In this document: piece by piece, positions 96 through 21,515 of the stretch | Numbering within the stretch: position 1 is the first letter of the stretch | Layout: every line of letters begins with the position of its first letter | Assembly: GCA_043806935.1 (NCBI GenBank) | Contig: JAZDGP010000004.1 | Span: 1-43,833 of the forward strand | Source of the DNA: a bacterium | Lineage (GTDB): Bacteria; Patescibacteriota; Patescibacteriia; JAZDGP01 | Length of the DNA stretch: 43,833 nt | Reading direction: 5' to 3' | The notes under the pieces: generated by a model | Told to the model about the DNA's origin: nothing | Database searches by the model: none | What the model saw: the letters and a program-made list of their open reading frames with translations, nothing else | Made by a program: the position numbers and the translations under genes

Positions 96-2273
96 CTAAG
101 AATTGTTTTTACATTCCTTATTAGAACACACTGTCGTGTCATTCTTCCCGTAGACCATTAAACTTTGGCATAGACTGCATTTTTCTCCAGTAGGCTTTGA
201 CCACAAAGCGAATTCGCAGTCTGGATAGCGATTGCATGAATAGAATAGCCTTCCGCCTTTCTTAGATCGTCTTTGCACTAATTCTCCCTTTTCGCACTTA
301 GGGCACTTTACTCCAGTGCCTTTCTCCACCTTCTTGATATTCTTGCACTCTGGATAGCCAGAACACCCCAAGAATATTCCAAACCTGCCTCGTTTCACTA
401 CCATTGGCTTGCCGCATTTATCGCAAGCTGGAGCGTCTTTTAACGCTTCTGCTTGCGCTACAGCTTCTTTGCCATACGGCTTGGTAGTCTTGCACTCAGG
501 ATAGTTGGTGCACGCTAGGAATTTGCCAAACCGTCCCAGTTTCAACACCATGGGGCTACCGCACTTAGGGCACTTTTCGTCAGTAGTCTCTTCAGTCAAC
601 TGTTTCTTATCCACTGTTTCGTACTTTGCAGTTAAGTTTTTCTTAAACGGCTTGTAGAATCCGTCAATGACTGGCACCCATTCTTTTTTCCCTTCAGCAA
701 TTTCATCCAGATCGTCTTCCAGCTTAGCAGTGAATCCGTAGTCCACGATCTCTGGAAAATTCTCCACCAAGAGATCATTGACTAGCATTCCCACTTCAGT
801 AGGCTGCAGACGTTTATCTTCCAGCCGTTTCTCCACGTACCCTCTCTCAATGATCGTGGAAATGGTAGGAGCGTATGTGGAAGGACGCCCAATGCCAAGT
901 TCTTCTAACACTTTGACAAGTCCTGCTTCTGAATAACGGGCAGGAGGTTCCGTAAAGTGCTGGAGAGGAGTGATGGTTTGGAGAGGAAGTGATTGTCCTT
1001 CCTTGACGTCAGGCAAAAGCACGTCGTCACGGCTGTCTGGATAGACTGCCAGCCAGCCTTGGAATTTAACTGTTGATCCAGTTGCTTTAAAGACTCCTGT
1101 TTCTTTCCCGTCATTTATAACAATTGACTTGCTAATGAACTCTGCGTCAGCCATTTGGCAAGCCATTGCTCGTTGCCAGATCAGGTCATACAGCTTTCTA
1201 GCCGCTGGTTCAGTGTCCATGAGATCACTGCCGTGTTTGGTTACATCAGTAGGGCGTATAGCTTCATGCGCTTCCTGCGCCAATTTATTCTTAGAAACGT
1301 ATTTTCTCCAGCCAGCATGGTAATTCTTTCCATATTCCTTTGTAATAAATCCTTGAGCTTCCACTAGGAATTTATCCGCCAGGTTGACTGAATCAGTGCG
1401 CATGTAAGTGATGTGGCCACGCTCATACAAATGCTGGGCGTGCATCATTGTCTGCTTGACTGACATTCCGAGCCTTCTGTTAGCTTCCTGCTGCAATGTG
1501 GAAGTGGTAAATGGAGGATAAGGAGAGCGTTTGGTTTCTTTGGATTCAATGGAAGCAACGTTGTAGGAGAGCGGCTGGAGAGTGTTTACAATCTGTTCTG
1601 CTTGGTCTTTGGCTTTAATGGAAAACTTTTCTAATGTTTTTTCTTGGTAGGCAGTGAGTTTGGCTTTTAACGTTTCCTTATCTCCAAAATCAGCTTCAAT
1701 AGTCCAATACTCTTCCGGCTTAAATTCCTTGATCTCCCGTTCTCTCTCCACAACCAATCTTACAGTTACTGACTGCACCCGTCCCGCGGACAATCCGCGG
1801 TATACCTTTTTCCACAGGAAAGGAGAGAGTTCGTAGCCTACAAGGCGGTCAAGCACGCGTCTGGCTTGCTGGGCGTCTACCAAATTGTCATCTATCTGGC
1901 GTGGATGCGTTAACGCGTGTTCAATGGCAGTCTTAGTAATCTCGTGGAAAGTGATCCGCTTTGCTTCCTTTATTCCCAGCACTTCCTGTAAATGCCAGGC
2001 AATAGCTTCTCCTTCACGGTCTTCATCAGTGGCTAAATAGACATCTTCCGCTTTCTTGGCAAGCGACTGTAATTCTTTGACATGCTCTTTGGCTTTTGGA
2101 GGTATGACATAGCTTGGCTCGTAATGATTGGCAGTATCCACTCCCATCTTCCGTTCCGGCAGATCCCTTACATGCCCAAAGGAAGAAGCGACCGCGTAGC
2201 CGCTGCCTAAGAATTTTGAAATGGTTTTCGCCTTAGTTGGCGATTCCACGATGACTAGATTTGTTTTTGCCAT
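96..2273 (-). CDS. topA: DNA topoisomerase I (type IA) with C-terminal C4 zinc ribbons
   Basis: TOPRIM motifs VIVESPTK and ATDEDREGE, SAGRVQS, catalytic ITYMRTD, repeated CPKCG ribbons. Confidence 0.98.
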   Translation of the reverse strand: MAKTNLVIVESPTKAKTISKFLGSGYAVASSFGHVRDLPERKMGVDTANHYEPSYVIPPKAKEHVKELQSLAKKAEDVYLATDEDREGEAIAWHLQEVLGIKEAKRITFHEITKTAIEHALTHPRQIDDNLVDAQQARRVLDRLVGYELSPFLWKKVYRGLSAGRVQSVTVRLVVEREREIKEFKPEEYWTIEADFGDKETLKAKLTAYQEKTLEKFSIKAKDQAEQIVNTLQPLSYNVASIESKETKRSPYPPFTTSTLQQEANRRLGMSVKQTMMHAQHLYERGHITYMRTDSVNLADKFLVEAQGFITKEYGKNYHAGWRKYVSKNKLAQEAHEAIRPTDVTKHGSDLMDTEPAARKLYDLIWQRAMACQMADAEFISKSIVINDGKETGVFKATGSTVKFQGWLAVYPDSRDDVLLPDVKEGQSLPLQTITPLQHFTEPPARYSEAGLVKVLEELGIGRPSTYAPTISTIIERGYVEKRLEDKRLQPTEVGMLVNDLLVENFPEIVDYGFTAKLEDDLDEIAEGKKEWVPVIDGFYKPFKKNLTAKYETVDKKQLTEETTDEKCPKCGSPMVLKLGRFGKFLACTNYPECKTTKPYGKEAVAQAEALKDAPACDKCGKPMVVKRGRFGIFLGCSGYPECKNIKKVEKGTGVKCPKCEKGELVQRRSKKGGRLFYSCNRYPDCEFALWSKPTGEKCSLCQSLMVYGKNDTTVCSNKECKNNS

Positions 2274-2288
2274 TGACGCTAATGTTTC

Positions 2289-3197
2289 TTAAGCTACAGC
2301 ATTGTGAAAAGTCTTGTCAAATAGGGGAGAGGAATAGAGGATGGAAATAACGTCGTCAATGCTGGAGCATACGACTGCTCCTTGTGACAATAATCTGTTT
2401 GTTCCCATTGATTGCGGAGACAGAATGGAGCCAGGCACAGCCAATACTTCACGGTTAGCTTCCAATGCCAGATTTGCCGTGATAAAGGTCCCTGATTTTA
2501 ATCCAGCTTCCACCACAATGGTAGCCAGTGACAATCCTGCGATGATACGGTTGCGTTCTGGGAAGGTGTAGTCAGTGGGATGGGCAAAAGGAACATATTC
2601 GCTAATTATTAACCCCCCGCTCTTTATAATCTCCTTGGTTAACTGCTCATTGGCTCTTGGGTATATTCTGCAAAGTCCGCTTCCAAGCACGGCAATTGTT
2701 TTTCCTTGCTTGGCAATGGCTGTCCTGTGGGCAGTACTATCAATACCAATTGCTAAGCCAGACACTGTTGTGATGCTGTGTTTAGATAAAGCTGTTACCA
2801 GCTCTTCAGTGACTGTGGTGCCGTAACGGCTTGGAGCTCTAGTGCCTACTACAGCCACCATGGGAGTGGAGAGAACTGAAATGTCTCCTTCAGTGAACAG
2901 AAAGGCAGGTGGATCTGGAGATTGTTTTAAGAGCAAAGGATAGCGTCCATCGTCATAAGGGATGAAACGATGCTTGCGCATGAATGCTGATTTGAACCGT
3001 TCCAGCTTAATTCTTGGTTTCCATTCTTGGAAGAGTTTTACGGCGTGTGGAGAAAAGCCTTTTGCAAGCCAGTCGTTTGCTGGAGCATGCCATGCTATTT
3101 CTAGATCTCCGTAGCTCTCTAAAAGATGGATAATCGTCACCCTGCCAAAACCAGGTATGGAATTAAAGGCTAAATAGTAGATATATTTTGTAGGCAT
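2289..3197 (-). CDS. dprA: DNA-processing protein DprA
   Basis: VAVVGTR, SGLAIGID, FPERNRIIAGLS, VVEAGLKSGT motifs; usual dprA-topA order. Confidence 0.96.
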   Translation of the reverse strand: MPTKYIYYLAFNSIPGFGRVTIIHLLESYGDLEIAWHAPANDWLAKGFSPHAVKLFQEWKPRIKLERFKSAFMRKHRFIPYDDGRYPLLLKQSPDPPAFLFTEGDISVLSTPMVAVVGTRAPSRYGTTVTEELVTALSKHSITTVSGLAIGIDSTAHRTAIAKQGKTIAVLGSGLCRIYPRANEQLTKEIIKSGGLIISEYVPFAHPTDYTFPERNRIIAGLSLATIVVEAGLKSGTFITANLALEANREVLAVPGSILSPQSMGTNRLLSQGAVVCSSIDDVISILYSSPLFDKTFHNAVA

Positions 3198-3225
3198 TGA
3201 CTTATTGTTAATAGTATGATAAGAT
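3197..3225 (+). promoter_or_regulatory. sigma70-type promoter TTGACT-17-(TGa)TAAGAT
   Basis: consensus match; the -35 overlaps the dprA start codon on the opposite strand. Confidence 0.6.
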
Positions 3226-3324
3226 GTAAATAATATAGAAACTTGTAATAACCCTCCTTTCTAGCAAAGAGCAAAAACGTACTTTTTGCAAAGAAAGGAA
3301 TTAACAACATTAGGAGGTAGCTTT

Positions 3325-3531
3325 ATGCCTATTAGTTTGGGAAAATTGGAAGAAATTTTTCCACTAGATATGATTGATTCTAGTGGTAAAATTATTGACC
3401 CGCCAGATTATTCTGGCTTCAGGGGTCAGCCAAAGAATTTATTTAAACAGAATTTTTTCTTCAGTTATATGCTCTGCCCAAGATGTGGTGCAGGGCTTAG
3501 GAGGGGGGAAGTATGTGGTAATTGTCATTAA
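3325..3531 (+). CDS. 68-aa orphan with C-terminal CxxC...CxxC zinc ribbon
   Basis: AGGAGG at 3312-3317 before ATG 3325; ends CPRCG...CGNCH; terminator follows. Confidence 0.7.
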   Translation: MPISLGKLEEIFPLDMIDSSGKIIDPPDYSGFRGQPKNLFKQNFFFSYMLCPRCGAGLRRGEVCGNCH

Positions 3532-3538
3532 TTTGTAA

Positions 3539-3575
3539 AGGCCCCTCTGTCAAAAGCGACGGCGGGGTTTGTTGT
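3539..3575 (+). terminator. intrinsic terminator
   Basis: GGCCCC..TGTC/GACG..GGGGTT imperfect stem plus T-rich tail. Confidence 0.55.
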
Positions 3576-3662
3576 TAATAAGTTTTATTTAGTAGAAAAG
3601 TTTTTAGTATTTTTCCTCTTGACCGGAAATAAATTTAGCGCTAAGTTAATTGTACAAAGCAT

Positions 3663-3989
3663 ATGTTTGAAATATTTCACAAATTATTTCGGTTCCTGTT
3701 TCCACACAGCAATCCAATAGACATCAAACGGCGGTATGGGCTGCCAGATGGTTTATCTATCCATATAAAGATGACCAACGATGGTTGGTTGGTGGCTACT
3801 GCTCCTGATCTTCCGGGATTGGTCACTCAAGCTCGGAATCGCGTTGAATTGCTGGAAATGGTCAATGACGCCGTATTGACGTATTTTGACGTGCCGAAAC
3901 GGGAAGCTGATGTTGTCTATGACCAATTGTTGTCTGAAGACGGGCAACTGGTAGAGTACCGGAGCAAACTACAGACCCGCACGACTTAA
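3663..3989 (+). CDS. hicB: HicB-like antitoxin
   Basis: GWLVATAPDLPGLVTQARNRVELLEMVNDAV matches the HicB partial RNase H fold pattern. Confidence 0.75.
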   Translation: MFEIFHKLFRFLFPHSNPIDIKRRYGLPDGLSIHIKMTNDGWLVATAPDLPGLVTQARNRVELLEMVNDAVLTYFDVPKREADVVYDQLLSEDGQLVEYRSKLQTRTT

Positions 3990-4000
3990 CTTCCATCACT

Positions 4001-4258
4001 ATGGGAGAGACTAATTTCAACCGACGGCAATGTCTGCGGGCATTGCGTAGGCTTGGCTTTACGATTACTCATGCTCGTCATGGTCGTCATGATAAATATT
4101 ACCCGTCACTGGAGATTAGTCGTGGGTTAAGCGGCCAACAGTCAAAGTTTATTATGATTCCGCGCCATAATGAATTACGGTGTCAGTCTGAGATTCTGCA
4201 AGAGTTGCGGCAGATGGGTGGCGATCGTTTGGTTGCTAATTTTACGCAGTCTCTCTAA
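4001..4258 (+). CDS. hicA: HicA-like mRNA interferase toxin
   Basis: LRRLGF...HGRH...IPRH pattern, basic 85 aa, adjacent to HicB-like gene. Confidence 0.7.
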   Translation: MGETNFNRRQCLRALRRLGFTITHARHGRHDKYYPSLEISRGLSGQQSKFIMIPRHNELRCQSEILQELRQMGGDRLVANFTQSL

Positions 4259-4294
4259 TTTTATTTTGTTTCATTATAGTAGTATAATTTCCTT

Positions 4295-4546
4295 ATGAAA
4301 TTAAACAAACTAGGTTATTTAGGATTGTTGGGTTTTTTGGGAATTTGGGGATATTGGGTTCCTAATAAATTGCCGTTGTTTTATTTATTCTCTTTGTTTC
4401 TTTTAATGTTTTTGCCTGACTTTGGGCATTGCCGCCGTGGTTGTCTGCCATGCCACAGTAAACATTGCGTTTGCCAAACCGGCCAGTCTTGTGATTGCCA
4501 TTGCTGCGTTAAGGCAGTTAAAGATGAAAGTACTGTTTCTAAGTAG
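4295..4546 (+). CDS. small membrane protein with Cys/His-rich tail
   Basis: hydrophobic N-half then HCRRGCLPCHSKHCVCQTGQSCDCHCC; TATAAT 6 nt before ATG. Confidence 0.65.
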   Translation: MKLNKLGYLGLLGFLGIWGYWVPNKLPLFYLFSLFLLMFLPDFGHCRRGCLPCHSKHCVCQTGQSCDCHCCVKAVKDESTVSK

Positions 4547-4664
4547 TTGTTAGTTCTTGAATGATCGGCGCGTGAGTGTTGACAATACGTTTTAGACAGA
4601 TTAGGGTTAGGCCAAGAGTACAGCAAAGCAATGTCTTTGCTGGAATAACCAAGGAGGAATAGCT

Positions 4665-4856
4665 ATGAAACCATTTAACAGTTTATGGGAAAAATTGTCT
4701 TACGCCATTGTTTGTGGCTGGCATTCTTTTGCCAATAATAAAATCGTCAGGATCATTTGGGGTTGTTTGCTAGTAATTTTCGTGATGATCATCGGATGTA
4801 TAGTTGTTATTATCGCGTTAGGTGTTACTGTTAAGGATATAGTATTGGAAAGTTAA
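4665..4856 (+). CDS. 63-aa single-TM orphan
   Basis: TTGACA near 4579, AAGGAGG SD, long hydrophobic segment, terminator downstream. Confidence 0.7.
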   Translation: MKPFNSLWEKLSYAIVCGWHSFANNKIVRIIWGCLLVIFVMIIGCIVVIIALGVTVKDIVLES

Positions 4857-4924
4857 TACAAAAAGATGCCAATAACGATGGAATATGAAGATTGATATTT
4901 AAGGACGAAATGGTTCTTATTTTT

Positions 4925-4958
4925 AACAGCTGGTATAAATTTTACCAGCTGTTTTGTT
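4925..4958 (+). terminator. intrinsic terminator
   Basis: AACAGCTGGTA/TACCAGCTGTT stem plus T-tract. Confidence 0.7.
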
Positions 4959-4987
4959 TACTCTCTTAATTGTGAGATAATAAAAGC

Positions 4988-6406
4988 ATGATTCGTTTTG
5001 TTTCTTTAATGTTCGTTCTTTTTTTGCTTGCTCCATCTGTTAGAGCGGCTAATAGCCCTCTATCCGTTTCCTTTACAGGCTCGTCCAGCTTCAAGATCGG
5101 ACAGCAATGGAACCCAATGGATAAAGGAGTAGTCAATATGGAGCTTGTAAATACAAGTTCATCTACAATACAGAATATTACATGGTATTGGGCTATTATC
5201 CGTCCTGCTTATGTTTATTTTGAGCCAGTAGACGCTTTATACTTCTGCAGCGGCAGTTACCGCTTGGATGCTTTGGGACGTGGAGAAAGAAGGCGGTGGC
5301 CTTTAGCTTCCAACTGCCCTGTATTTTCAGCCAGCGGACCTTATACATTGACCAGTACTGTCGTGTCTTCTGACTTCAGCAAGGAGTTTAAGACAACGAT
5401 TACTGTCAGTCCGTCTTTTACAGCCAATGATTTGAAATTCTTTGGATCAGTGACAGTTAATCCTCCGCGACAGCCTATTAGGACTGGGGAGAGTATTAAC
5501 TTCGCGCAACGGTTTGATTTCCAGCCTTTGTTTGAGGATGCGCAGAAAGGGAAGTTTAGGAGCGGTTTGTATAATGGGAGCGATACACGCCAGCAGATAA
5601 CTCTTGATTTTGATCTGCTGGGTCCAGCAGGCGGATCTTTTTGCCAAGGAAGCGCTTACCCTACGATTGAGGCTAAAGGAATGATCTCTCGTATCAGCCA
5701 AGTGTTGTCTCTTTATAAGGATTGCGGAGTGATTAAACAAACAGGGAAGTGGACAGTTGTGTTGAAAGCAAAAGGAGATAAAGGAAGCGACCAGCTCAAA
5801 TCTGATATCTACGTTCTGCCTGGCAGTGAGACAGTAGGGTCAGGCAATGTTCCTGTGGGCCTTCCTTTGATCTTACAGTCTTTATCTGGCAGTAAGACAG
5901 TTTCTAAGGACAGCGACCGTGATGGAGATACTTTATCTGACTACGACGAAGTGTATGTCTGGAAGACTAATCCTGATAACCCTGACACTGATGGAGATGG
6001 CTATACGGATGGCTTGGAGGTGAGGAACCAGTACAATCCGTTGGGACCTGGCAAACTTATTCCCCGTCCAGTCTCTAAACGTTATGGCACAGTAGTCAAA
6101 ACAGCAAAAGAGATGGGAGTGTATTATGTAAGTGACGGAGTGAAGCGTGGATTCCCGTCAGCTGGAGTGTTTACCGCCTATGGATTTAAGTTCTCTGAAG
6201 TGAAAGTTGTGAGCCAGAAAGAGTTGGATAGTTACAAGACTGGCAGTATGGTTGGCTATCCAGTAGGGACAGTGGTGAAGGATAGCGACGGCAATTGGTA
6301 CAAGGTGGCTGGAGACTTGCGTTTAAAGCCAGTGAAGGGAAGTGGCGGAGTGCTTGTTAGCGACAAGGAGCTGCAGTTGTATAACGTTGATTACAGCAAA
6401 GACTAA
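4988..6406 (+). CDS. secreted/surface protein with Ca-binding DxDxDG (TSP3-like) repeats
   Basis: signal peptide; DSDRDGDTLSDYDE...DTDGDGYTDGLE motif. Confidence 0.8.
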   Translation: MIRFVSLMFVLFLLAPSVRAANSPLSVSFTGSSSFKIGQQWNPMDKGVVNMELVNTSSSTIQNITWYWAIIRPAYVYFEPVDALYFCSGSYRLDALGRGERRRWPLASNCPVFSASGPYTLTSTVVSSDFSKEFKTTITVSPSFTANDLKFFGSVTVNPPRQPIRTGESINFAQRFDFQPLFEDAQKGKFRSGLYNGSDTRQQITLDFDLLGPAGGSFCQGSAYPTIEAKGMISRISQVLSLYKDCGVIKQTGKWTVVLKAKGDKGSDQLKSDIYVLPGSETVGSGNVPVGLPLILQSLSGSKTVSKDSDRDGDTLSDYDEVYVWKTNPDNPDTDGDGYTDGLEVRNQYNPLGPGKLIPRPVSKRYGTVVKTAKEMGVYYVSDGVKRGFPSAGVFTAYGFKFSEVKVVSQKELDSYKTGSMVGYPVGTVVKDSDGNWYKVAGDLRLKPVKGSGGVLVSDKELQLYNVDYSKD

Positions 6407-6412
6407 TCGTTT

Positions 6413-7303
6413 TTATCTTATTTTTATAATCAGATCCTTATTTTTATTTGTAAGGGTTATTTGTTTGTTATCATGAATGGACAAAGAAGCGTAAAGGCCA
6501 TCATTGTCCAGCAATCTGTAGATCATAGGCTGTCCTAACGGATCTTGAGTTTCAACAGCTAATAGAGCTTCTTTGGTCAGCAATAGAACATAAGGGCTGT
6601 CTGGCAACCACACACCGTCTATTAAAAGATCTCCAGATCTCCAAACAGCAGATAGGCTTTGGGCAGAAGGATCATACGTACCAGCGCGGTGGTCGCTCAT
6701 GACCAGCAGTAAGCCTTTATCAGACCAAATTGCTTTTCTGATCATTTCTGGCCAGCAGAACTGTTGGTTATTGCCGTCAGAAGCGGATAACAACAAACAG
6801 TTTTTGTTCGCGCTGATATATAGCTGGTATTTTTCATTACCCTGTCCGTCAAAATGCTTATAACCAGGATAGCTTTTAATAGTTATTTCCTTTTGCGGTT
6901 CACTCTCTTTTTTTACAGTGGCAGTTATTGCCATTAAGTCAGGGCTCTGTTTTGGATCTTTGAGCAATACGATCTTGTTAAACCGTTTGGCAGTTCCAGG
7001 CAGTATAGAAATTTTTTTCTTCCATGGAAAATACCCTTCTTTTTTTAATTCAACTTCATACGTACCGCCGGATAAGCTGTAGTCATACCACGGAGTTGAA
7101 TCTTTTACCTGTTTGCCGTCCACCAAGACTATTACGTCTTTAGGATCGCTTATAAGTTCAAGAGCCGCTGTTTTAGTCACTTTCCCGTTCTTAATTTCAT
7201 ATCTGTAGCCAGAAGCGTATAGAATGACTAATGGTCCTGACACCAGGAAGGCGACTACGAAGGAAGCTGCTAAGAGCCTACGATGCGCGAGGTTAAAAGC
7301 CAT
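6413..7303 (-). CDS. PEGA-domain membrane-anchored protein
   Basis: N-terminal TM, ASGYRY, SDPKDVIVLVDG...GTYEVELKKEGYFPWKK. Confidence 0.8.
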   Translation of the reverse strand: MAFNLAHRRLLAASFVVAFLVSGPLVILYASGYRYEIKNGKVTKTAALELISDPKDVIVLVDGKQVKDSTPWYDYSLSGGTYEVELKKEGYFPWKKKISILPGTAKRFNKIVLLKDPKQSPDLMAITATVKKESEPQKEITIKSYPGYKHFDGQGNEKYQLYISANKNCLLLSASDGNNQQFCWPEMIRKAIWSDKGLLLVMSDHRAGTYDPSAQSLSAVWRSGDLLIDGVWLPDSPYVLLLTKEALLAVETQDPLGQPMIYRLLDNDGLYASLSIHDNKQITLTNKNKDLIIKIR

Positions 7304-7839
7304 TACTTGACGTAGATAGTCGCTTGGAAGTCGGAGAGCTTGTCCTGGATCGGGTAGACGCCAGGTTCTTGGAATACAAAGCCATAGGATTGGTTTTGAG
7401 CGAGGGGACGTCCAGCGTCAAACTTTGGGTAGGGAAGTGATGCTGGCCAGTGGCGCGCGGTGTCAGTATTGGTGATGTTTACGCTTTGTCCACGTTCAAT
7501 AGTGATCATGGATGGCACGTATCCGCTCTTACTGATCTTGATTGCTACAGCCGGCAATTTGCTTCCTGGCAGATTGGCATTGCCTGGTGGAGGAGTAACT
7601 ACTGGTGGCACTGGCTGTATGGAAGACTGGGGGACAACAGGAGCGTTGAGGTTGGCATTAGAGAAAGCGTCTGAAGTAGGAGGAGCAGACGGTTGAGGAA
7701 CGGTTGGTGTTTTGTTAATGACTGACGGCTGGTCAATAGGGCTAGGGAGGCTGGTTTCCGTAGATGATCCACTGCCACAGCCAGTAATAAGCAAAGCTAC
7801 GGCAATAGCAACGGTTAATAATTGGATGGTGTTTTTCAT
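7303..7839 (-). CDS. lipoprotein with Pro-rich linker and cupredoxin-like domain
   Basis: lipobox LITGC; ITIERGQSVNITN...HWP...FVFQEPGVY. Confidence 0.75.
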   Translation of the reverse strand: MKNTIQLLTVAIAVALLITGCGSGSSTETSLPSPIDQPSVINKTPTVPQPSAPPTSDAFSNANLNAPVVPQSSIQPVPPVVTPPPGNANLPGSKLPAVAIKISKSGYVPSMITIERGQSVNITNTDTARHWPASLPYPKFDAGRPLAQNQSYGFVFQEPGVYPIQDKLSDFQATIYVK

Positions 7840-7893
7840 AGTGTTATGTACAGTATACCAATTGCTTTGGTAATTGGCACTTATTAAGTGTTA

Positions 7894-7922
7894 TTGACAA
7901 TCTTTGTAGGAAGTGCTAGTAT
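7894..7922 (+). promoter_or_regulatory. sigma70-type promoter TTGACA-17-(TGc)TAGTAT
   Basis: consensus match upstream of the small ORF at 8019. Confidence 0.65.
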
Positions 7923-8018
7923 ATAGGTAATAGATTTACTTTAATTTTGTTGTATAAACAGGTAAACCTCTCTAGCGCCGCGCTGGATTGATAAGCCATA
8001 AATAAGGAGAAATATACA

Positions 8019-8174
8019 ATGCCAACTGAATTGACAATTGGGGTTCAATATCTTGATCAGTGCGGAAAATTCAATGTTGGTTTTAACGAGATTGCCAACG
8101 ATAGTTGCATAGACATGTCTTGGTTTGACGAGGATTGGACCAGTCTTTGTCAACACATCGAATTTAGCAATTAG
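8019..8174 (+). CDS. 51-aa acidic orphan peptide (not in ORF track)
   Basis: TAAGGAG SD; MPTELTIGVQYLDQCGKFNVGFNEIANDSCIDMSWFDEDWTSLCQHIEFSN; own promoter and terminator. Confidence 0.65.
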   Translation: MPTELTIGVQYLDQCGKFNVGFNEIANDSCIDMSWFDEDWTSLCQHIEFSN

Positions 8175-8197
8175 TAGGGCTGGAAAATTTTACCAGC

Positions 8198-8236
8198 AAA
8201 CCGTGGGAATAAGATTTCTCACGGTTTTGTCTTTTT
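8198..8236 (+). terminator. intrinsic terminator
   Basis: AAACCGTGGGAA/TTCTCACGGTTT stem plus T-tract. Confidence 0.65.
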
Positions 8237-8321
8237 ACTTCATTGCAATTCAAATGAGAATTCGGGAAAAAGAACCACCTTTGTAAGTAGGCGGTTCTTT
8301 ACTTCTTTTAGTTCTTAATCT

Positions 8322-8341
8322 ATTATTAGTAATAATTCCTA
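8322..8341 (+). promoter_or_regulatory. Fur/PerR-type 7-1-7 operator
   Basis: TAGTAAT-A-ATTCCTA (one mismatch) overlapping perfect ATTATTA-G-TAATAAT just upstream of the Fur-family gene. Confidence 0.55.
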
Positions 8342-8352
8342 TTTAGGATTAT

Positions 8353-8745
8353 ATGCAATCTAGAATGTCCAATCAGCGCCAGTTAGTGCTGGGTTACCTG
8401 CTAACAGTACAAGACCACCCAACAGCTGAAACAGTGTACAAGGCAGTTAAAAAGAAACTGCGAAGAATTTCCTTTGGCACAGTATACCGTAATTTAGCTT
8501 CTATAAGAGACCAAGGGAAGATTTTAGAATTACGATTCAACCACGAGGAAGCGGCACGGTATGATTCAAACACTTCCTTTCATTTCCATTTTATTTGCAA
8601 AAGTTGCAAAGCTATCCATGACGTCAGCCGTTGCCCGTTGCCTACGTTGCGTAAAGGATTGGAGATTATGGGTGGGACAGTAGATAGCTATCGCCTGGAT
8701 TTCTACGGTTTGTGCAAAGACTGTTCTGTAAAAAATCATGCGTGA
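8353..8745 (+). CDS. Fur-family regulator (PerR-like)
   Basis: HPTAE, GTVYRNL, HFHFICKSC, CKDC. Confidence 0.92.
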   Translation: MQSRMSNQRQLVLGYLLTVQDHPTAETVYKAVKKKLRRISFGTVYRNLASIRDQGKILELRFNHEEAARYDSNTSFHFHFICKSCKAIHDVSRCPLPTLRKGLEIMGGTVDSYRLDFYGLCKDCSVKNHA

Positions 8746-9892
8746 ATTTATTTATTTGGATTATTCCGCTTCCACTCCGGTGGATCCAGCGGTGGTAAAG
8801 GCAATGGAGCCGTACTGGAGCGAACAGTACGGTAACGCTTCGTCTATTCATGAGATGGGAAGAACTGCTCGGATAGCTGTGGAAGACAGCAGAAAGAAAG
8901 TAGCTTGTATCTTACATTGCGATCCATTGGAAATTGTTTTTACGGCAGGCGGCACGGAGAGCGTTAATTTAGCTATTACCGGCATTGTCAGAGCTAACCA
9001 GAGGAAAGGGAAGCATATTGTTACCACTGTTATTGAGCATCACACGGCGCTTCATGCCATTAACTATTTGGAGAAAGAAGGCTGGACTGTTACATACGTG
9101 CCAGTGGATAAGAACGGCCATGTGGATCCAATGGCAGTAGTGGACATTGTGAGAGACGACACGGTCTTGGTGTCAGTCATGTACGCTAATAACGAGATTG
9201 GTACTGTACAGCCTATAACGGAAATTAGCAGATTAGTAAAAGAGAAATATCCTCAAGTCTATTTTCACACTGACGCTTGTCAAGCCCCTGGGAGCTTGCC
9301 ATTAGGAGTTAATGATCTGGGAGTGGATCTTATGTCTTTAAGCGGCAGTAAGATTTACGGGCCTAAGGGCAGCGCTGTCTTGTACGTGAAGAATGGAGTG
9401 AAGATTGATCCTATTATTCACGGAGGAGGACAAGAAAGGAATTTACGGTCTGGCACTGAAAGTGTTTCATTGATCGTAGGGTTTGCCAAAGCACTGGAGT
9501 TAATAGAAGAAAACAGAGAACAGGAAACAAAGAGATTGATGGCATTAAGAGAACGATTGGTGACTCGCGTCTTGGCCGTTGTTCCTGGTGCGGTGCTTAA
9601 TGGCCAAGGAGACGTGCTTCCCAACAAAGCTAATTTTTCTATTCCTGGAATCAATGGCAATGAGTTGGTGTTAACTTTGGACAGATACGGAATTGGATGC
9701 AGTACAGCGTCAGCTTGCTCAAGCGGAAATCCACAGCCGTCTCATGTGGTGCTGGCATTGGGAGTGCCATATGAACTGGCCCAAGGGACTGTACGGTTCA
9801 GTTTAGGCAAGGATACGACGGATGATGATATTGCCTATTTATTGGAAGTGTTGCCTAAAGCAGTGAAGGAGGTAAGGAATAAAAAAGCATGA
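8738..9892 (+). CDS. iscS: group I cysteine desulfurase (IscS/NifS-like)
   Basis: IYLDY, GNASS, SKIYGPKG, STASACSS. Confidence 0.9.
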   Translation: MREFIYLDYSASTPVDPAVVKAMEPYWSEQYGNASSIHEMGRTARIAVEDSRKKVACILHCDPLEIVFTAGGTESVNLAITGIVRANQRKGKHIVTTVIEHHTALHAINYLEKEGWTVTYVPVDKNGHVDPMAVVDIVRDDTVLVSVMYANNEIGTVQPITEISRLVKEKYPQVYFHTDACQAPGSLPLGVNDLGVDLMSLSGSKIYGPKGSAVLYVKNGVKIDPIIHGGGQERNLRSGTESVSLIVGFAKALELIEENREQETKRLMALRERLVTRVLAVVPGAVLNGQGDVLPNKANFSIPGINGNELVLTLDRYGIGCSTASACSSGNPQPSHVVLALGVPYELAQGTVRFSLGKDTTDDDIAYLLEVLPKAVKEVRNKKA

Positions 9893-10581
9893 ATAGTTTG
9901 GATGTAAAAGACTTACGAGTTGCGGTGAACAACAAGGAAGTGATCCATAATGTCTCTTTAACAGTGGAAGCTGGCACAATCCACGCGCTGGTAGGGCCCA
10001 ATGGATCTGGGAAAAGCTCCTTGGCGTACGCGATAGCCGGACATGGAGAGTATATTGTTGCTGGAGGGAATATTTTGTTGGACGGTAATAGTGTTGTTGG
10101 CTTAACTCCTGAAGCAAGGGCCAAGCAAGGGTTGTTTCTATCGTTCCAAGAGCCTCCTGTGGTGGGCGGAGTGGCCTTGCGTAGTTTTTTAAGGACAATT
10201 GGCAGCAACGTAGAGGATGCTTTGCCTAAACTCAAACTGGAAGATTCTTTTTTGTCCAGATATCTTAATGATGGATTTTCCGGAGGAGAGAAGAAGAAGA
10301 GCGAAGTGCTGCAGCTGTTAGCTAGAAAGCCAAAAATCGCTATTTTAGATGAATTGGACACTGGCTTGGATACGGACGCTTTCCAAGGAGTAATTGGTTT
10401 ATTGAAAACAATCGTTCAGGCTGGCACGGGACTGTTGGTGATCAGCCACTCAACAAGATTGTTTAAGGAATTAGTTCCTGACCAGGTACATGTGCTGGTG
10501 GATGGAAGAATTGTGAGAGAAGGAAACGCAGAGATTTTAGAAGCGATCGCTAAGAACGGCTATGGCCAATTCCAAGAGTGA
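9889..10581 (+). CDS. sufC: Fe-S assembly ATPase SufC
   Basis: GPNGSGKS, GFSGGEKK, ILDELDTGLD; operon context. Confidence 0.93.
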   Translation: MNSLDVKDLRVAVNNKEVIHNVSLTVEAGTIHALVGPNGSGKSSLAYAIAGHGEYIVAGGNILLDGNSVVGLTPEARAKQGLFLSFQEPPVVGGVALRSFLRTIGSNVEDALPKLKLEDSFLSRYLNDGFSGGEKKKSEVLQLLARKPKIAILDELDTGLDTDAFQGVIGLLKTIVQAGTGLLVISHSTRLFKELVPDQVHVLVDGRIVREGNAEILEAIAKNGYGQFQE

Positions 10582-17571: not shown

Positions 17572-18114
17572 ATGACTAAGGGAATGATCCAAACGTACAC
17601 AGGAGAGGGCAAGGGCAAGACAACAGCCGCTTTAGGGCTGGTTATTAGGGCGTTGGGCAATGGTTTACGGGTAGGAATAGTTTATTTTGATAAGGGAGGT
17701 GAGTTTTATAATGAACGGAAGCTGTTGAATAAATTGATTGAGATTGGTTTGCCATTGCTATATGAAGCAACTGGCCTTCTTCGTTTTGATCCCGCGGCCA
17801 AGACCTTTAGGTTTGGAGTGAATGATGGCGATAAGAAAGAAGCGGAGCGAGGGTTAGTATTAGCCAAACAATTATCTAGTTGTGTTGATTTACTGATCTT
17901 AGACGAGCTTAATTCTACTGTGTCGTTGGGCATGCTGGTCGTGGAATCAGTGGTTGTTTTCTTAAAAGACAAGCCAGAGGGTTTGGAAGTTGTTTTAACT
18001 GGCAGGCAGGCGCCCAAAGAAATTATAGAATTAGCTGATCTGGTTACAGAAATGAAGATGGTGAAACATTATTACAAGCAGGGGGTGGAAGCTAGAGAAG
18101 GGATAGAGTATTGA
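17572..18114 (+). CDS. cobO: cob(I)alamin adenosyltransferase CobA/CobO/BtuR
   Basis: YTGEGKGKTTAALG, LILDE, EVVLTGR, ADLVTEM, GIEY. Confidence 0.93.
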   Translation: MTKGMIQTYTGEGKGKTTAALGLVIRALGNGLRVGIVYFDKGGEFYNERKLLNKLIEIGLPLLYEATGLLRFDPAAKTFRFGVNDGDKKEAERGLVLAKQLSSCVDLLILDELNSTVSLGMLVVESVVVFLKDKPEGLEVVLTGRQAPKEIIELADLVTEMKMVKHYYKQGVEAREGIEY

Positions 18115-18156
18115 CATATTTTGTAGATATGCTATAATTATAACAATAAGAACATC
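18106..18156 (+). repeat. 51-bp exact direct repeat copy 1, contains promoter TTGACA-16-(TGc)TATAAT
   Basis: identical to 18893-18943. Confidence 0.95.
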
Positions 18157-18229
18157 AAAATAACTTAAAAATTTCTTTAGATTAAGCCAATTTTGGCGTT
18201 AATTTAAAGGATATTTATTGGAGGATCAA

Positions 18230-18790
18230 ATGAAATCATTATTATTGTATGTAATAACTTTTGTGGTTTTATCTTCAAACGTATTCGCCCAAAACAGCCT
18301 TTTTGTTGAAAGCGAGTATAAGTATTCTGATGATCCGTCTGTAATCACTTACAGATTAGGAGCCAAACACGACTTTAATAGTAAAATCAGCTTCAGTTCT
18401 TTTGGGCTGGTGAACAAGAATTATGCTCAGGCTCATTTCAGCATCAATTACAAAATCACTGATTGGTTAAAGGCAGGAGTTGGCCAGGGAATAGAGCAAT
18501 CAAAAGAATTGTGGAGATTGGCAGCTAATCTGCAAATAATGAATGGGAGTTATAGTTGGGTTACTTTCTATGAACACGGGATGAATGGATATTGGTTTCA
18601 AACGGAATTAAAATATCAATTCAATCCATCTCTAAGTGTTGGGATCTTTGGCAGAAGATTTGTCGGGTTTGGACCAGAGATAGCGATAGCGATTCCGCAA
18701 ACACCTTTTGTTGTATGGACCGTGCCATACGCTTATGATATTGAAAGTAAAAAAAGCGGTGGTTTGATAGTTATTTTGTTACTGTTTTGA
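18230..18790 (+). CDS. secreted beta-barrel-like protein
   Basis: GGAGG SD, signal peptide ending VFA/Q, alternating aromatic/hydrophobic strands, C-terminal Phe. Confidence 0.65.
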   Translation: MKSLLLYVITFVVLSSNVFAQNSLFVESEYKYSDDPSVITYRLGAKHDFNSKISFSSFGLVNKNYAQAHFSINYKITDWLKAGVGQGIEQSKELWRLAANLQIMNGSYSWVTFYEHGMNGYWFQTELKYQFNPSLSVGIFGRRFVGFGPEIAIAIPQTPFVVWTVPYAYDIESKKSGGLIVILLLF

Positions 18791-18796
18791 TTCGTA

Positions 18797-18837
18797 AAGT
18801 CCTGTTTTATTAAAAGTAAAACAGGACTTTTGTTTTT
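18797..18837 (+). terminator. intrinsic terminator
   Basis: AAAGTCCTGTTTTA/TAAAACAGGACTTT stem plus T-tract. Confidence 0.8.
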
Positions 18838-18892
18838 ATAATGCTATTTCCACAAATCTTATAAAAGCCATCCTTTGCCATGATTATTTATT

Positions 18893-18943
18893 GAGTATTG
18901 ACATATTTTGTAGATATGCTATAATTATAACAATAAGAACATC
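18893..18943 (+). repeat. 51-bp exact direct repeat copy 2 (promoter), followed by a tandem extra TAAGAACATC
   Basis: identical to 18106-18156. Confidence 0.95.
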
Positions 18944-19022
18944 TAAGAACATCCCTAAAATCAGCTGAATAAATCATCCAAATAATTGATTTATTCAGCG
19001 ATTTAAAATAAAGGAGAACACA

Positions 19023-19352
19023 ATGAAATATTTTAACACGACTCTTGGGCTTTCTATGCTTCCGGATGGAAAGTTTTACGTAGTCACTGTTGATGCTGAT
19101 GCCGCAAAATGTTTTTTCTCTTCTAATGATATTCAAAATATCGCTAATCCAACACATGCCAATAGTCTTCAAGCTATTATTCAAAAACTGGGCGTAGATG
19201 TTAGAGACGCCAAGGGTGGTAGAATTAGGTTAAGTTCAGGTGACCAATGTCTAATTGCGGAGATTTCTGGCATTCCTCGTGAAACCCGTGAATTTTCTGA
19301 TACTGAAATTGCCAGTGCGGTATTTAATTTTCGTATAGTCGAAGTATTATAA
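19023..19352 (+). CDS. DUF1874 (STIV B116/YddF/AcrIII-1)-like protein
   Basis: 109 aa; YFNTTLGLSML start, His45, KLGVDV...RIRLSSGDQCLI, PRE...EI, FRIVEV layout. Confidence 0.6.
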   Translation: MKYFNTTLGLSMLPDGKFYVVTVDADAAKCFFSSNDIQNIANPTHANSLQAIIQKLGVDVRDAKGGRIRLSSGDQCLIAEISGIPRETREFSDTEIASAVFNFRIVEVL

Positions 19353-19371
19353 CGTTTTTATTTGAAGTTGT

Positions 19372-19407
19372 ACCCCCTAGTATTATCTTAGGGGGTTTTG
19401 TATTTTT
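19372..19407 (+). terminator. intrinsic terminator
   Basis: ACCCCCTA/TAGGGGGT stem plus T-tract. Confidence 0.75.
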
Positions 19408-19472
19408 GGAGTTCTCTTTGTAAATTAGTTAGTTCCTTGTTTTTTACAGTCAGTGATGTTTTAATACCTAAC

Positions 19473-20024
19473 ATGATTAATCAACAAGAATCGTTTACAC
19501 CCATTAATATGGAGCAAACGCTAACCGAAGAAAAGATAGCAGAACTAGTTACAGAAGTTAAAGCAATGATAGCTCCTTTTTATAATGCCATTGAACAAGC
19601 TAGGAAAGCTAATGCGGACAGAGAAGTAGGAGGAAGGATTAAATCTGGCAAATTACAATTTATGGATGAATCGCAGTGGCTGAGCAGTTCGGTGGTCGGT
19701 GAATTTCATGAAGAGGAAAGAAAAATAACTAAAGACGGTTGGCTTACTTTCCATACGCATCCGGTAGCTGGCCTACCCCATGAATCAGCAGCTGATATCC
19801 TAGCGGCTTATTATCGTTTGCGGGAAGTGATTATTCATGAACAAGGTATTACTTTACTGATCGCTTTGAAAGAATTGCCAGTGGATATAATCACTAAATT
19901 GGACGAACAAGCTTGGAAGGAAGCGCAATTAGAAGAAGAAAAAAGCGGAGAGCAAGCGTATTGGTTTTGGAAAGGTATTCTTCAACAAAAACTGCCGGTA
20001 CGGGTCGTTAATTTTAAACTATAA
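19473..20024 (+). CDS. JAB/MPN-like metalloprotein
   Basis: REVGG...FHTHP-x7-SAAD resembles the JAMM motif; start uncertain (19473 or 19509). Confidence 0.6.
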   Translation: MINQQESFTPINMEQTLTEEKIAELVTEVKAMIAPFYNAIEQARKANADREVGGRIKSGKLQFMDESQWLSSSVVGEFHEEERKITKDGWLTFHTHPVAGLPHESAADILAAYYRLREVIIHEQGITLLIALKELPVDIITKLDEQAWKEAQLEEEKSGEQAYWFWKGILQQKLPVRVVNFKL

Positions 20025-20157
20025 ATACCGGAAACGTTATTATTACTTTAGAAGTTATGATGGGCTCGAATTATTCGCTCACTTTATTATGTTTTTAGTA
20101 TTTTATACTATACTACCCTTATAAAGGTTGTCCTTTACTATGGTTATTTATGGAGCA

Positions 20158-20186
20158 TTGACAACATTAAATTATCGTGATAAGGT
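20158..20186 (+). promoter_or_regulatory. sigma70-type promoter TTGACA-17-(TGa)TAAGGT
   Basis: consensus match; upstream 46 nt homologous to 18858-18903. Confidence 0.65.
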
Positions 20187-20240
20187 GTTTAGTCATTTAG
20201 AACATTGAGTTCTGGTGATCAAAAACATTTGGAGGTTAAC

Positions 20241-21185
20241 ATGAAATCATTATTGTATGTAATAACCATTGTGGCGCTATCTTCAAGCATATTTGCTCAA
20301 CAATCTATTCGCATTGACGGTTTTGTTCATTTGCTGGACGGTTACAGTAAAACACCAATCGGCGGGCAGGTACAACGTTCCATGGTTAAACTGAGGTTAA
20401 ATAACGCTCAATATGGAGCAGTGGTTAACTTTGATTTAGCTGGACCACGGTTGTTGCACAATGCTTTTATCTGGTTCGGTCTTCCTCCTTTCGGTTTTGT
20501 CAATTCGTTTAAAATTTCTTTTGGGAAGACGATTCCGATTTTTGGAAACAACTATCCATTGTATCCTTCTGAAATTATCTTGATCAACTTTAATCCAAGC
20601 GCTAGTAAGATGTTGACTGTCAGGGATGTTGGCCTGAGTGCTCAATGGGAAACTCCTTGGGTTAAGGGCATTTGTTCCATCACTAATGGGACGGATACAA
20701 GGCTGGTTAATGGAGGAGACAACAATAATTCAAGAGACATTTCTCTCAGGTTGGTTAAAAAGTTTTGGTTTTTTTCGGTGGCGGCCAGCGCTCGTTTTGC
20801 TGATGCTGATTTTGCCAAGAGGCTGATTGGAGCGGATATAGAAGTTGCTTATGATAGTTTGAAAATAATATCCGAAATCATCCTCTCAAACATTGCTGGA
20901 TTTCCGGTGCTCGGGCAAACAAATGCGTTGATGTTGAACGCGGGTAATAAAGAATCAGTAGGTTTGAATGTAATGGGCGTTTATTCTTTTTCCCCTTGTG
21001 AATTTATCGCTGATTTTGATCATTACCATTCGGTGGTTAGCACTGAGCAAACGTATACATTTGGTATTAACTACCACTTGTCAAAACAGGTGAGATTTGC
21101 AGTAAATTGTATTCAGGTTGAAAATAAAACAACTGGCATTGAACGTAAAGTTTTATCCCAGTTGGAATACAAAATTAGTATTTAA
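20241..21185 (+). CDS. secreted porin-like (OprO/OprP-like) beta-barrel protein
   Basis: GGAGG SD, signal peptide, RDVGL...ITNG...DNNNSRDISLRL motif, YTFGINYH, QLEYKI terminal strand. Confidence 0.6.
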   Translation: MKSLLYVITIVALSSSIFAQQSIRIDGFVHLLDGYSKTPIGGQVQRSMVKLRLNNAQYGAVVNFDLAGPRLLHNAFIWFGLPPFGFVNSFKISFGKTIPIFGNNYPLYPSEIILINFNPSASKMLTVRDVGLSAQWETPWVKGICSITNGTDTRLVNGGDNNNSRDISLRLVKKFWFFSVAASARFADADFAKRLIGADIEVAYDSLKIISEIILSNIAGFPVLGQTNALMLNAGNKESVGLNVMGVYSFSPCEFIADFDHYHSVVSTEQTYTFGINYHLSKQVRFAVNCIQVENKTTGIERKVLSQLEYKISI

Positions 21186-21212
21186 CTATGAATTTAGATT
21201 TTGTTCCGCTTC

Positions 21213-21251
21213 AAAGTCCCGTTTCGTTGATTGAGACGGGATTTTTGTTTT
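21213..21251 (+). terminator. intrinsic terminator
   Basis: AAAGTCCCGTTTC/GAGACGGGATTTT stem plus T-tract. Confidence 0.75.
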
Positions 21252-21311
21252 CATGCTATGCTATCCATACAAAGGTCGTTCTTTTTTATAATCACTATTA
21301 ACCTTATTTAT

Positions 21312-21515
21312 ATGGATCAAATGATGGAACAAAATAAGTCATGTTCCTGTACGCACCATAAGTTCGTGCCATTTCTTATTTTCTTGTTTGGTTTGCTATT
21401 CCTGCTAGGCAATCTGGGCGTGCTAGGGCAAGGATTAGTGGACATTGTCTGGCCGATCCTAGTGCTGCTTGGCGGTTTGTCCATGATGACCAGCGGTAAG
21501 TGCAAGTGCTGCTAA
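21312..21515 (+). CDS. small 2-TM protein (LiaF/DUF5668-like) with Cys-rich ends
   Basis: GLLFLLGNLG...WPILVLLGG; CSCTHH and CKCC. Confidence 0.7.
   Translation: MDQMMEQNKSCSCTHHKFVPFLIFLFGLLFLLGNLGVLGQGLVDIVWPILVLLGGLSMMTSGKCKCC

Follow-up and report, generated by a model that had tools for sequence, protein, structure and literature searches.

A stand-alone DUF1874-fold protein, probably a cyclic tetra-adenylate ring nuclease, in a Patescibacteriota genome with no detected cyclic oligoadenylate pathway

Analysis of a 43,833-nucleotide stretch of contig JAZDGP010000004.1 (assembly GCA_043806935.1, Patescibacteriota), hereafter referred to as the window, revealed a gene for a 109-amino-acid protein that, judged from its predicted structure and from profile comparisons, belongs to the DUF1874 fold family of STIV B116, AcrIII-1 and Crn2. 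We hold it to be probable that this is a horizontally acquired orphan gene whose cytoplasmic homodimer, by analogy with solved relatives, cuts cyclic tetra-adenylate (cA4) in the manner of AcrIII-1 and Crn2. While family, fold and chemistry were known before, the setting is new, as the gene belongs to a conserved clade found in Patescibacteria genomes in which no cyclic oligoadenylate (cOA) pathway was detected. The gene had been singled out by an original prediction, made from the letters of the window, as a divergent AcrIII-1/DUF1874-like ring nuclease candidate with a consensus promoter, outside any visible prophage or CRISPR locus. Its open reading frame (ORF) is present at the position claimed, and a direct count on the translation placed N42-P43-T44-H45, R67, R86 and E87 exactly where the prediction had put them.

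19023..19352, + strand: DUF1874 (AcrIII-1/Crn2-family) coding sequence of 109 amino acids, assigned from ORF translation with fold and profile evidence; H45 is the putative general acid, E87 its partner, and K64/R67 and R86 are candidates for the phosphate and lid arginines.

Predicted fold and family assignment

Close relatives of the 109-residue protein number 44, at 50–71% identity, and were combined with it into an alignment of 45 sequences (A1). In the alignment, 19 columns show no variation, including those of H45, R67, R86, R89 and E90, and conservation of this extent at such divergence indicates that the gene is under selection. Within this clade, the Pfam model PF08960 (STIV_B116-like, formerly DUF1874) matches 35 of the 45 members at E ≤ 0.1, with a best value of 9.6e-7. 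When 1.84 billion representatives were searched exhaustively with HMMER, 48 proteins were returned at E ≤ 0.001, and a wider alignment of 51 sequences, picked from this search and from the search for relatives (A2), was compared as a profile with the PDB. This comparison retrieved AFV3-109 (E 4.5e-5), SIRV1 gp29 (2x4i; E 2.6e-4), STIV B116 (E 8.4e-4), Csx1-Crn2 (E 2.6e-3) and 6scf (E 9.8e-3). Comparison of A1 with P0091, a relative carrying two DUF1874 domains in tandem and scoring 100.7 bits on Pfam, gave a probability of 95.8% and an E value of 7.8e-9 over 104 columns in hhalign. Searching the PDB with the single protein sequence afforded chance matches only (E ≥ 1.5), and PHROGs and PADLOC searches with the 109-residue protein returned no match.

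An AlphaFold2 model built on A1 reached a predicted local distance difference test score (pLDDT) of 93.2 and a predicted template modelling score of 0.85. Foldseek comparison of this model with the PDB, the check that the original prediction had proposed, yielded 16 matches at E ≤ 0.001; the 12 rows listed at that level (ranks 1–10, 13 and 14) are without exception DUF1874 structures at template modelling (TM) scores of 0.64–0.73, including STIV B116 (E 8.7e-6, TM 0.72), AcrIII-1 6scf, SIRV1 ORF114, AFV3-109 and Csx1-Crn2. VIA-align, which is independent of Foldseek and was run against 48,161 representative chains, gave Z scores of 13.7 for Csx1-Crn2 8y7f (root-mean-square deviation 1.9 Å over 105 residues), 13.5 for B116, 12.3 for AFV3-109 and 12.1 for 8y7g; these four DUF1874 chains align over 104–105 residues, and the next fold follows at Z 2.5. 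A search of the ESM Atlas retrieved PF08960 clusters at TM 0.85. Foldseek, VIA-align, the A2 profile and hhalign all bear out the DUF1874-like identity proposed for the protein, and at the level of model and profile its assignment to the DUF1874 (STIV B116/AcrIII-1/Crn2) fold is secure.

Comparison with AcrIII-1 (SIRV1 gp29, 6scf/2x4i; STIV B116, 2j85; AFV3-109, 2j6b) revealed the same length class and the same fold across all 109 residues, with Z scores of 12.3–13.5 and the TM range given above, as well as a common use of strand β2 in the homodimer as modelled here, while sequence identity amounts to only 16–22%. The best structural match is Crn2, represented by Marinitoga Csx1-Crn2 (8y7f/8y7g), a family that also comprises free-standing crn2 genes in type III loci. 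In contrast to the fused Csx1-Crn2, the protein of the window is unfused and has no cas gene near it, and neither Cas10, Cas1 and CARF-HEPN proteins nor an array were found in its genome. YddF, from the conjugative element ICEBs1 of Bacillus subtilis, offers a third point of comparison, drawn from its description rather than its sequence: it, too, is a bacterial DUF1874 gene that stands alone and away from a CRISPR locus, although it sits in a defined mobile element whereas no element borders are visible around 19023..19352. In the accessible part of the report on AcrIII-1, YddF is stated to cleave cA4, and many bacterial DUF1874 homologues outside CRISPR loci are already noted (10.1101/778746).

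The family further includes fused and extended forms. P0051, of 578 amino acids, carries at its C-terminus a DUF1874 domain that shares 53% identity with the 109-residue protein, and its 470-residue N-terminal region has no Pfam match. P0072 joins DUF1874 to an RNA-polymerase alpha C-terminal-domain-like domain and P0090 joins it to HTH_17, while P0070, of 235 amino acids, carries an N-terminal part of no known assignment.

Active site, predicted dimer and proposed reaction

In the accessible parts of the reports on SIRV1 gp29 (10.1101/778746) and Crn2 (PMC11317161), the general acid is assigned to H47 and H495, respectively, the glutamate that orients this histidine to E88 and E536, the arginine at the scissile phosphate to R66 and R514, the N-terminal contacts to N8 and to N451/S452, and the arginine that locks the lid loop to R85 and R533. 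H45 of the 109-residue protein shares the column of the catalytic histidine in three independent alignments and is invariant in all 45 sequences of A1, which confirms the family position that the original prediction had given it. E87, at least 90% conserved in A1, aligns with E88/E536 and with the glutamate of the canonical LPEG loop, and P85 aligns with P534 of Crn2, so that the histidine and glutamate columns are shared with both AcrIII-1 and Crn2. Where AcrIII-1 carries GH at the histidine, the 109-residue protein carries NPTH. This motif had been regarded as an oddity replacing GH; NP[ST]H is in fact the rule in a large bacterial branch, which includes P0064, a protein above the Pfam cut-off at 29.2 bits. 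The positions equivalent to the cA4 contacts of gp29 (N5/T6, G9, S11, N47, S/T48, I/V68, E/Q80 and F91) are all conserved within the clade. Read from the alignments, the catalytic dyad is retained and selection acts on the pocket, whose basic residues are re-arranged as described below.

Prediction of a two-copy complex gave a score of 0.60, with the best of 3 controls at 0.31; of proteins with solved structures, 20 of 30 pairs reach the mark for this score, against 1 of 23 single chains, and as solved DUF1874 dimers exist, the pass may reflect likeness to them and not independent evidence. Three runs agreed in 100% of contacts, with a partner pLDDT of at least 86. The predicted interface comprises residues 7–11, 13–22, 78, 80, 104, 106 and 109, that is, β2 and its loops, and the dimer contact of Crn2 likewise lies at the β2 region in the accessible part of the corresponding report (PMC11317161). 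The modelled pair therefore has the form of a homodimer through β2, of the type that holds the cA4 pocket.

Following the solved relatives, from which substrate and chemistry are inferred, two subunits would pair via β2 and its flanking loops into a basket, and one molecule of cA4 would be bound at the dimer interface, with the loop 83–92 closing over it. His45, oriented by Glu87, would then protonate the leaving group as ribose 2'-OH groups attack in line, and the resulting metal-free cut would open the cA4 ring into two A2>P halves. The phosphate-binding and lid functions of the canonical arginines would pass to K64/R67, which surround a Gly-Gly insertion, and to R86.

Several observations weigh against this reading. 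The single sequence scores 13.6 bits against PF08960, below the cut-off of 26 (E 0.073), in a sub-threshold alignment that runs end to end (residues 12–102 against positions 11–100 of 101). The R66/R514 column falls on G65 in the hidden Markov model alignment or on K64 in hhalign, the R85/R533 column on I84 or P85, and the Asn column (N8/N451) on T6, directly after N5. Invariant R67 is found two to three residues past the R66/R514 column, after a conserved Gly-Gly, and invariant R86 directly follows the conserved Pro, which the canonical lid Arg precedes; R67 and R86, put forward by the original prediction as the conserved family arginines, thus stand about two residues downstream of the canonical columns, where AcrIII-1 has Arg66 and Arg85 and the 109-residue protein has Gly and Ile/Pro. 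These shifts imply that substrate or rate may differ from those of the canonical enzymes. A literature search revealed no member of the NPxH/KGGR/PRETREF clade with biochemical data; the DUF1874 proteins tested, according to the accessible parts of the reports, are SIRV1 gp29, YddF, a phage THSA-485A protein and Csx1-Crn2 (10.1101/778746, PMC11317161). For SIRV2 gp37, a close homologue of gp29, the accessible part of a further report describes no anti-CRISPR role in native infection, and instead binding and inhibition of a host lysine methyltransferase (10.1101/2023.01.10.523387). Neither the genome of the window nor 10 other small genomes carrying the gene yielded a cA4 source. Finally, searches of IMG/VR (pattern scan and tblastn), of the 50,697 phage records of INPHARED and of the 72,556 plasmid records of PLSDB retrieved no relatives, which weakens a mobile-element origin.

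An alternative is that the fold has been kept for another job, either on a different cyclic or linear oligonucleotide or in protein binding as for SIRV2 gp37, whose report leaves a non-nuclease role possible for the 109-residue protein. The shifted Arg and Asn positions, the Gly-Gly insertion in the phosphate loop and a genome with no cA4 source would fit such a change of function, as would the fusion of relatives to HTH_17, to an RNA-polymerase alpha C-terminal-domain-like domain and to the 470-residue N-terminal region of P0051. However, the His/Glu pair and most of the cA4-contact positions are conserved, and one clade member stands near a CARF-HEPN Csx1, pointing to cOA chemistry. We give this alternative a minor chance and continue to favour cleavage of cA4.

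Genomic context and distribution of the relatives

The best indirect evidence that the clade handles cA4 comes from a metagenome-assembled genome (MAG) of a member of the Myxococcales (G066). Its DUF1874 protein is 44% identical to that of the window, shares its YFNT, NxANPxH, GG[RK] and PRxTREF motifs, and is encoded in a true Crn2 context in the order Cas6, DUF1874, mad2-like methyltransferase and CARF-HEPN Csx1 (E 1.2e-79). A full Cmr1-6/Cas10 module of type III-B is present in the same genome on another contig.

L007, positions 4612–9917 (contig C514): Myxococcales locus with Cas6-DUF1874-Csx1.
L021, positions 1351–8909 (contig C395): Myxococcales locus with Cmr1-6 and Cas10.

In a FastTree analysis of 49 hand-chosen sequences out of about 100 available, which carries no support values and is read for gross grouping only, the Myxococcales protein lies inside the clade of the window, and differently labelled lineages of the Candidate Phyla Radiation (CPR; Patescibacteria) interleave. 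LmuB-like, MkoB-like and DUF2357 genes were also observed near the Myxococcales loci, so that a Crn2 of the clade to which the 109-residue protein belongs is here part of a defence island.

Eight loci besides the window were examined, six from CPR genomes, one from a gammaproteobacterial genome of 1.1 Mb and one from the Myxococcales genome (7.1 Mb), and no neighbouring gene is shared among the nine. The CPR contexts are ordinary, with HisRS, FtsK, TIM, MnmA, AlaRS, topoisomerase IB and pyrimidine synthesis genes, and Pfam assignment of 67 neighbours revealed unrelated housekeeping genes, apart from a transposase gene of the integrase type some 1.3 kb away from the homologue of locus L002 and the Cas6 of the Myxococcales locus L007.

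The gene has few carriers among the genomes compared. With the own genome counted, profile A1 matched 4 of 61 class-level genomes, in one case over a 35-position fragment only, and family matches occur in 8 of 401 phylum-level genomes, again counting the own genome. The clade of the 109-residue protein itself is represented in only 2 of the 401 (the own genome and G360), the other carriers belonging to a more distant NPSH group. Within the phylum, the DUF1874 gene is a rare accessory gene and no lineage trait. The genome of the window comprises 701,928 bases in 51 contigs, is 96.3% complete and has a GC content of 43.6%. Among 5.8 billion proteins, no relative of its ribosomal protein L10 (33019–33594) exceeds 47% identity, and the 60 nearest genomes all belong to the same class only, each to a different family, which together indicates a deep, poorly sampled lineage. 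The best non-self identity of the DUF1874 protein, by comparison, is 71%. The best L10 hits with a name, at 39–47% identity, gave no taxonomic information, and the phylum follows instead from two genomes of the same phylum (G360 and G334) whose loci L023 and L024 are identical to L003 and L009 of MAGs labelled Saccharibacteria and Patescibacteria. The gene lies in a low-GC islet of about 3.8 kb (~17700–21500) with 33–39% GC, whereas flanking genes have 43–50%. Rarity, unshared neighbours, the low-GC islet and the contrast of 71% with 47% identity point to a horizontally acquired accessory islet, with the DUF1874 gene as an orphan within it. AcrIII-1 proteins are viral, while the gene of the window is not part of a recognisable virus and has no relatives in the phage and viral collections searched.

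Transcription and translation signals

All three expression signals claimed for the gene, a consensus promoter, a Shine-Dalgarno sequence and a terminator, were located around 19023..19352, together with a stable hairpin in the 5' untranslated region (5'UTR).

18890..18946, + strand: promoter-bearing copy of a 57-nt repeat, with TTGACA at 18898–18903, a 16-nt spacer and TGcTATAAT at 18917–18925.
18958..19004, + strand: stable 5'UTR hairpin with a 13-bp perfect stem (18964–18976 / 18987–18999) plus extension.
19010..19016, + strand: Shine-Dalgarno AAAGGAG, 6 nt 5' of the ATG, read from the sequence.
19372..19396, + strand: intrinsic terminator with a 9-bp stem containing 5 G-C pairs, followed by a T tract.

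The promoter is of the sigma-70 type with 12 of 12 hexamer matches and an extended -10 TG. A second terminator (18796–18830) ends the upstream gene, so that, with its own promoter and terminator, the DUF1874 gene forms a stand-alone transcription unit. Perfect promoters of the form TTGACA-N16-18-TATAAT occur only 6 times across the 702-kb genome, and two of these are the 28-mer of the DUF1874 gene and an identical copy at 18111. This second copy is part of a 57-nt direct repeat (18103–18159 / 18890–18946), 96% identical and with the same perfect promoter in both copies, which precede two unrelated genes, one for a secreted beta-rich protein and the other the DUF1874 gene. The copy at 18103–18159 overlaps the stop codon of a corrinoid adenosyltransferase gene.

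The hairpin lies between the promoter and the ribosome-binding site of the DUF1874 transcript, with a folding free energy of −20.2 kcal/mol and a z score of −5.76, and none of 200 shuffled sequences was equally stable. It could be an operator or an RNA element, possibly with a regulatory function. Comparison with Rfam revealed no family at gathering score, and no counterpart was seen by eye upstream of 8 homologues.

Searches for a source of cA4

The claim that the gene lies outside a CRISPR locus held throughout the genome, which at 96% completeness contains no CRISPR-like array and yielded no Csm1, Cmr2, Cas1 or SMODS protein in profile searches. PADLOC models for Cas10, Csx1/Csm6 and CARF found nothing in it either, with the Myxococcales MAG serving as positive control. 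The genome thus shows none of the array, Cas10, Cas1, Csx1/Csm6 or CARF that would go with the cellular label Crn2. Searches for SAVED (PF18145), Cas_APE2256 (PF09651) and TLC (PF03219) were likewise silent but uninformative, as control genomes gave no match either. Ten other small carrier genomes (0.7–1.4 Mb) contain no Cas10 match over the cut-off and neither Csx1/Csm6 nor CARF, and neither Cas1 nor a CRISPR array turned up in them; their sub-threshold Csm1 matches are confined to the first ~100–120 positions of the model, except in one genome, where a C-terminal stretch is covered.

These results make it improbable that the protein acts as a cellular off-switch akin to Crn2, acting in an endogenous signalling pathway built on a cyclase other than Cas10 and a sensor other than CARF or SAVED. 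The Cas6-DUF1874-Csx1 context of one clade member and the strong conservation of the gene would be in line with such a role, and the 5'UTR hairpin could be its regulatory element. Against this, the genome gave no Cas10, SMODS, Csx1/Csm6 or CARF match, no neighbour is conserved in the 9 loci, a genome of 0.7 Mb offers little room for an unseen pathway, and the patchy distribution is unlike that of a core regulator.

If the genome neither makes nor senses cOAs, any cA4 that the protein meets must come from elsewhere. Under the favoured reading, this source would be a host cell or the target of a mobile element; otherwise, the gene would be carried cargo of mobile-element origin. We infer that it is either such cargo, persisting in the genome, or acts on cA4 of foreign origin.

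A host as the source leads to the idea, raised by the original prediction, of an episymbiont weapon: the protein would enter the cytoplasm of the host bacterium, destroy cA4 and thereby silence host type III CRISPR effectors that would otherwise respond to nucleic acids of the symbiont. An episymbiotic life is plausible, given that the genome shares its phylum with MAGs bearing the labels Saccharibacteria and Patescibacteria; it is also small (702 kb at 96% completeness), and all cultivated Patescibacteria are episymbionts according to the accessible part of one report (PMC12206443). A perfect promoter on the gene and the lack of a detected cOA pathway in the own genome would suit the idea as well. 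Against it, the protein lacks a signal peptide, residues 2–22 being structural and part of the modelled dimer interface, and the gene is rare, with any family member in 8 of the 401 genomes sampled from the phylum and the own clade in 2. No conserved neighbour hints at a delivery system, and the search for a type IV secretion ATPase, a weak test, gave no clear candidate: PF03135 had no match and PF02534 only a sub-threshold one (14 bits, E 0.007), with models that may miss divergent Patescibacteria forms. In addition, there is no sign that the RNA of an external symbiont is seen by the type III systems of a host. Nothing in the analysis supports the disarming of a host, which we consider very improbable as a specific explanation. 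The broader proposal, that ultra-small episymbionts keep a highly expressed orphan ring nuclease for foreign cOA, either quenching the cA4 of the host cell as an anti-CRISPR between cells or acting on another cyclic-nucleotide signal via the re-modelled KGGR and PRETRE loops, has a small chance in our view.

The islet and its neighbouring genes

The islet contains five small genes, namely two porin-like ORFs, the DUF1874 gene, a JAMM-like ORF and a 94-residue Cys-rich membrane ORF (21231–21515), and is bounded at one end by genes for a class II ribonucleotide reductase and the corrinoid adenosyltransferase and at its other end by an RNase J-like gene.

19509–20024, + strand: divergent JAMM/MPN+ metallopeptidase-like protein, with H82, H84, S93 and D96 invariant in 23 sequences.

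A model of the JAMM-like protein reached a pLDDT of 90.5, and Foldseek matched it with JAMM1, Rpn11 and AMSH at E 0.01–0.1; its structural neighbours also include domains from fusion proteins of the phage minor-capsid and portal type. Viral clusters predominate among those nearest to it in the Atlas, which we take as a lead only. A functional link between the JAMM-like ORF and the DUF1874 gene was considered and rejected, as the former is absent from the other loci and was found in only 1 of 401 phylum genomes. The statement that the DUF1874 gene lies outside a prophage stands in part: Pfam revealed no integrase or phage structural gene in the window, while the low-GC islet and the mostly viral clusters nearest to the downstream neighbour speak against it.

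The two porin-like ORFs, 18218–18790 (190 amino acids) and 20205–21185 (326 amino acids), are paralogous, with 82–88% identical DNA in the region of the ribosome-binding site and signal peptide, and gave weak porin-like matches (Porin_4, E 3.2e-5; DUF5723, E 0.008). Omp85/BamA was not found in the genome, whereas 7 control diderms were positive, and secreted proteins resembling beta-barrels are puzzling in a bacterium that presumably has a single membrane.

Implications

Viruses, mobile elements and a few type III CRISPR loci are the known sources of DUF1874 ring nucleases. A literature search covering sources other than subscription journals and the extended-data figures of AcrIII-1 found no paper joining DUF1874 or ring nucleases with Patescibacteria/CPR. 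If the enzyme is active, ring nucleases would travel as free-standing cargo far from CRISPR conflict, or, alternatively, symbiont-host pairs would exchange, or fight over, cyclic-nucleotide signals.

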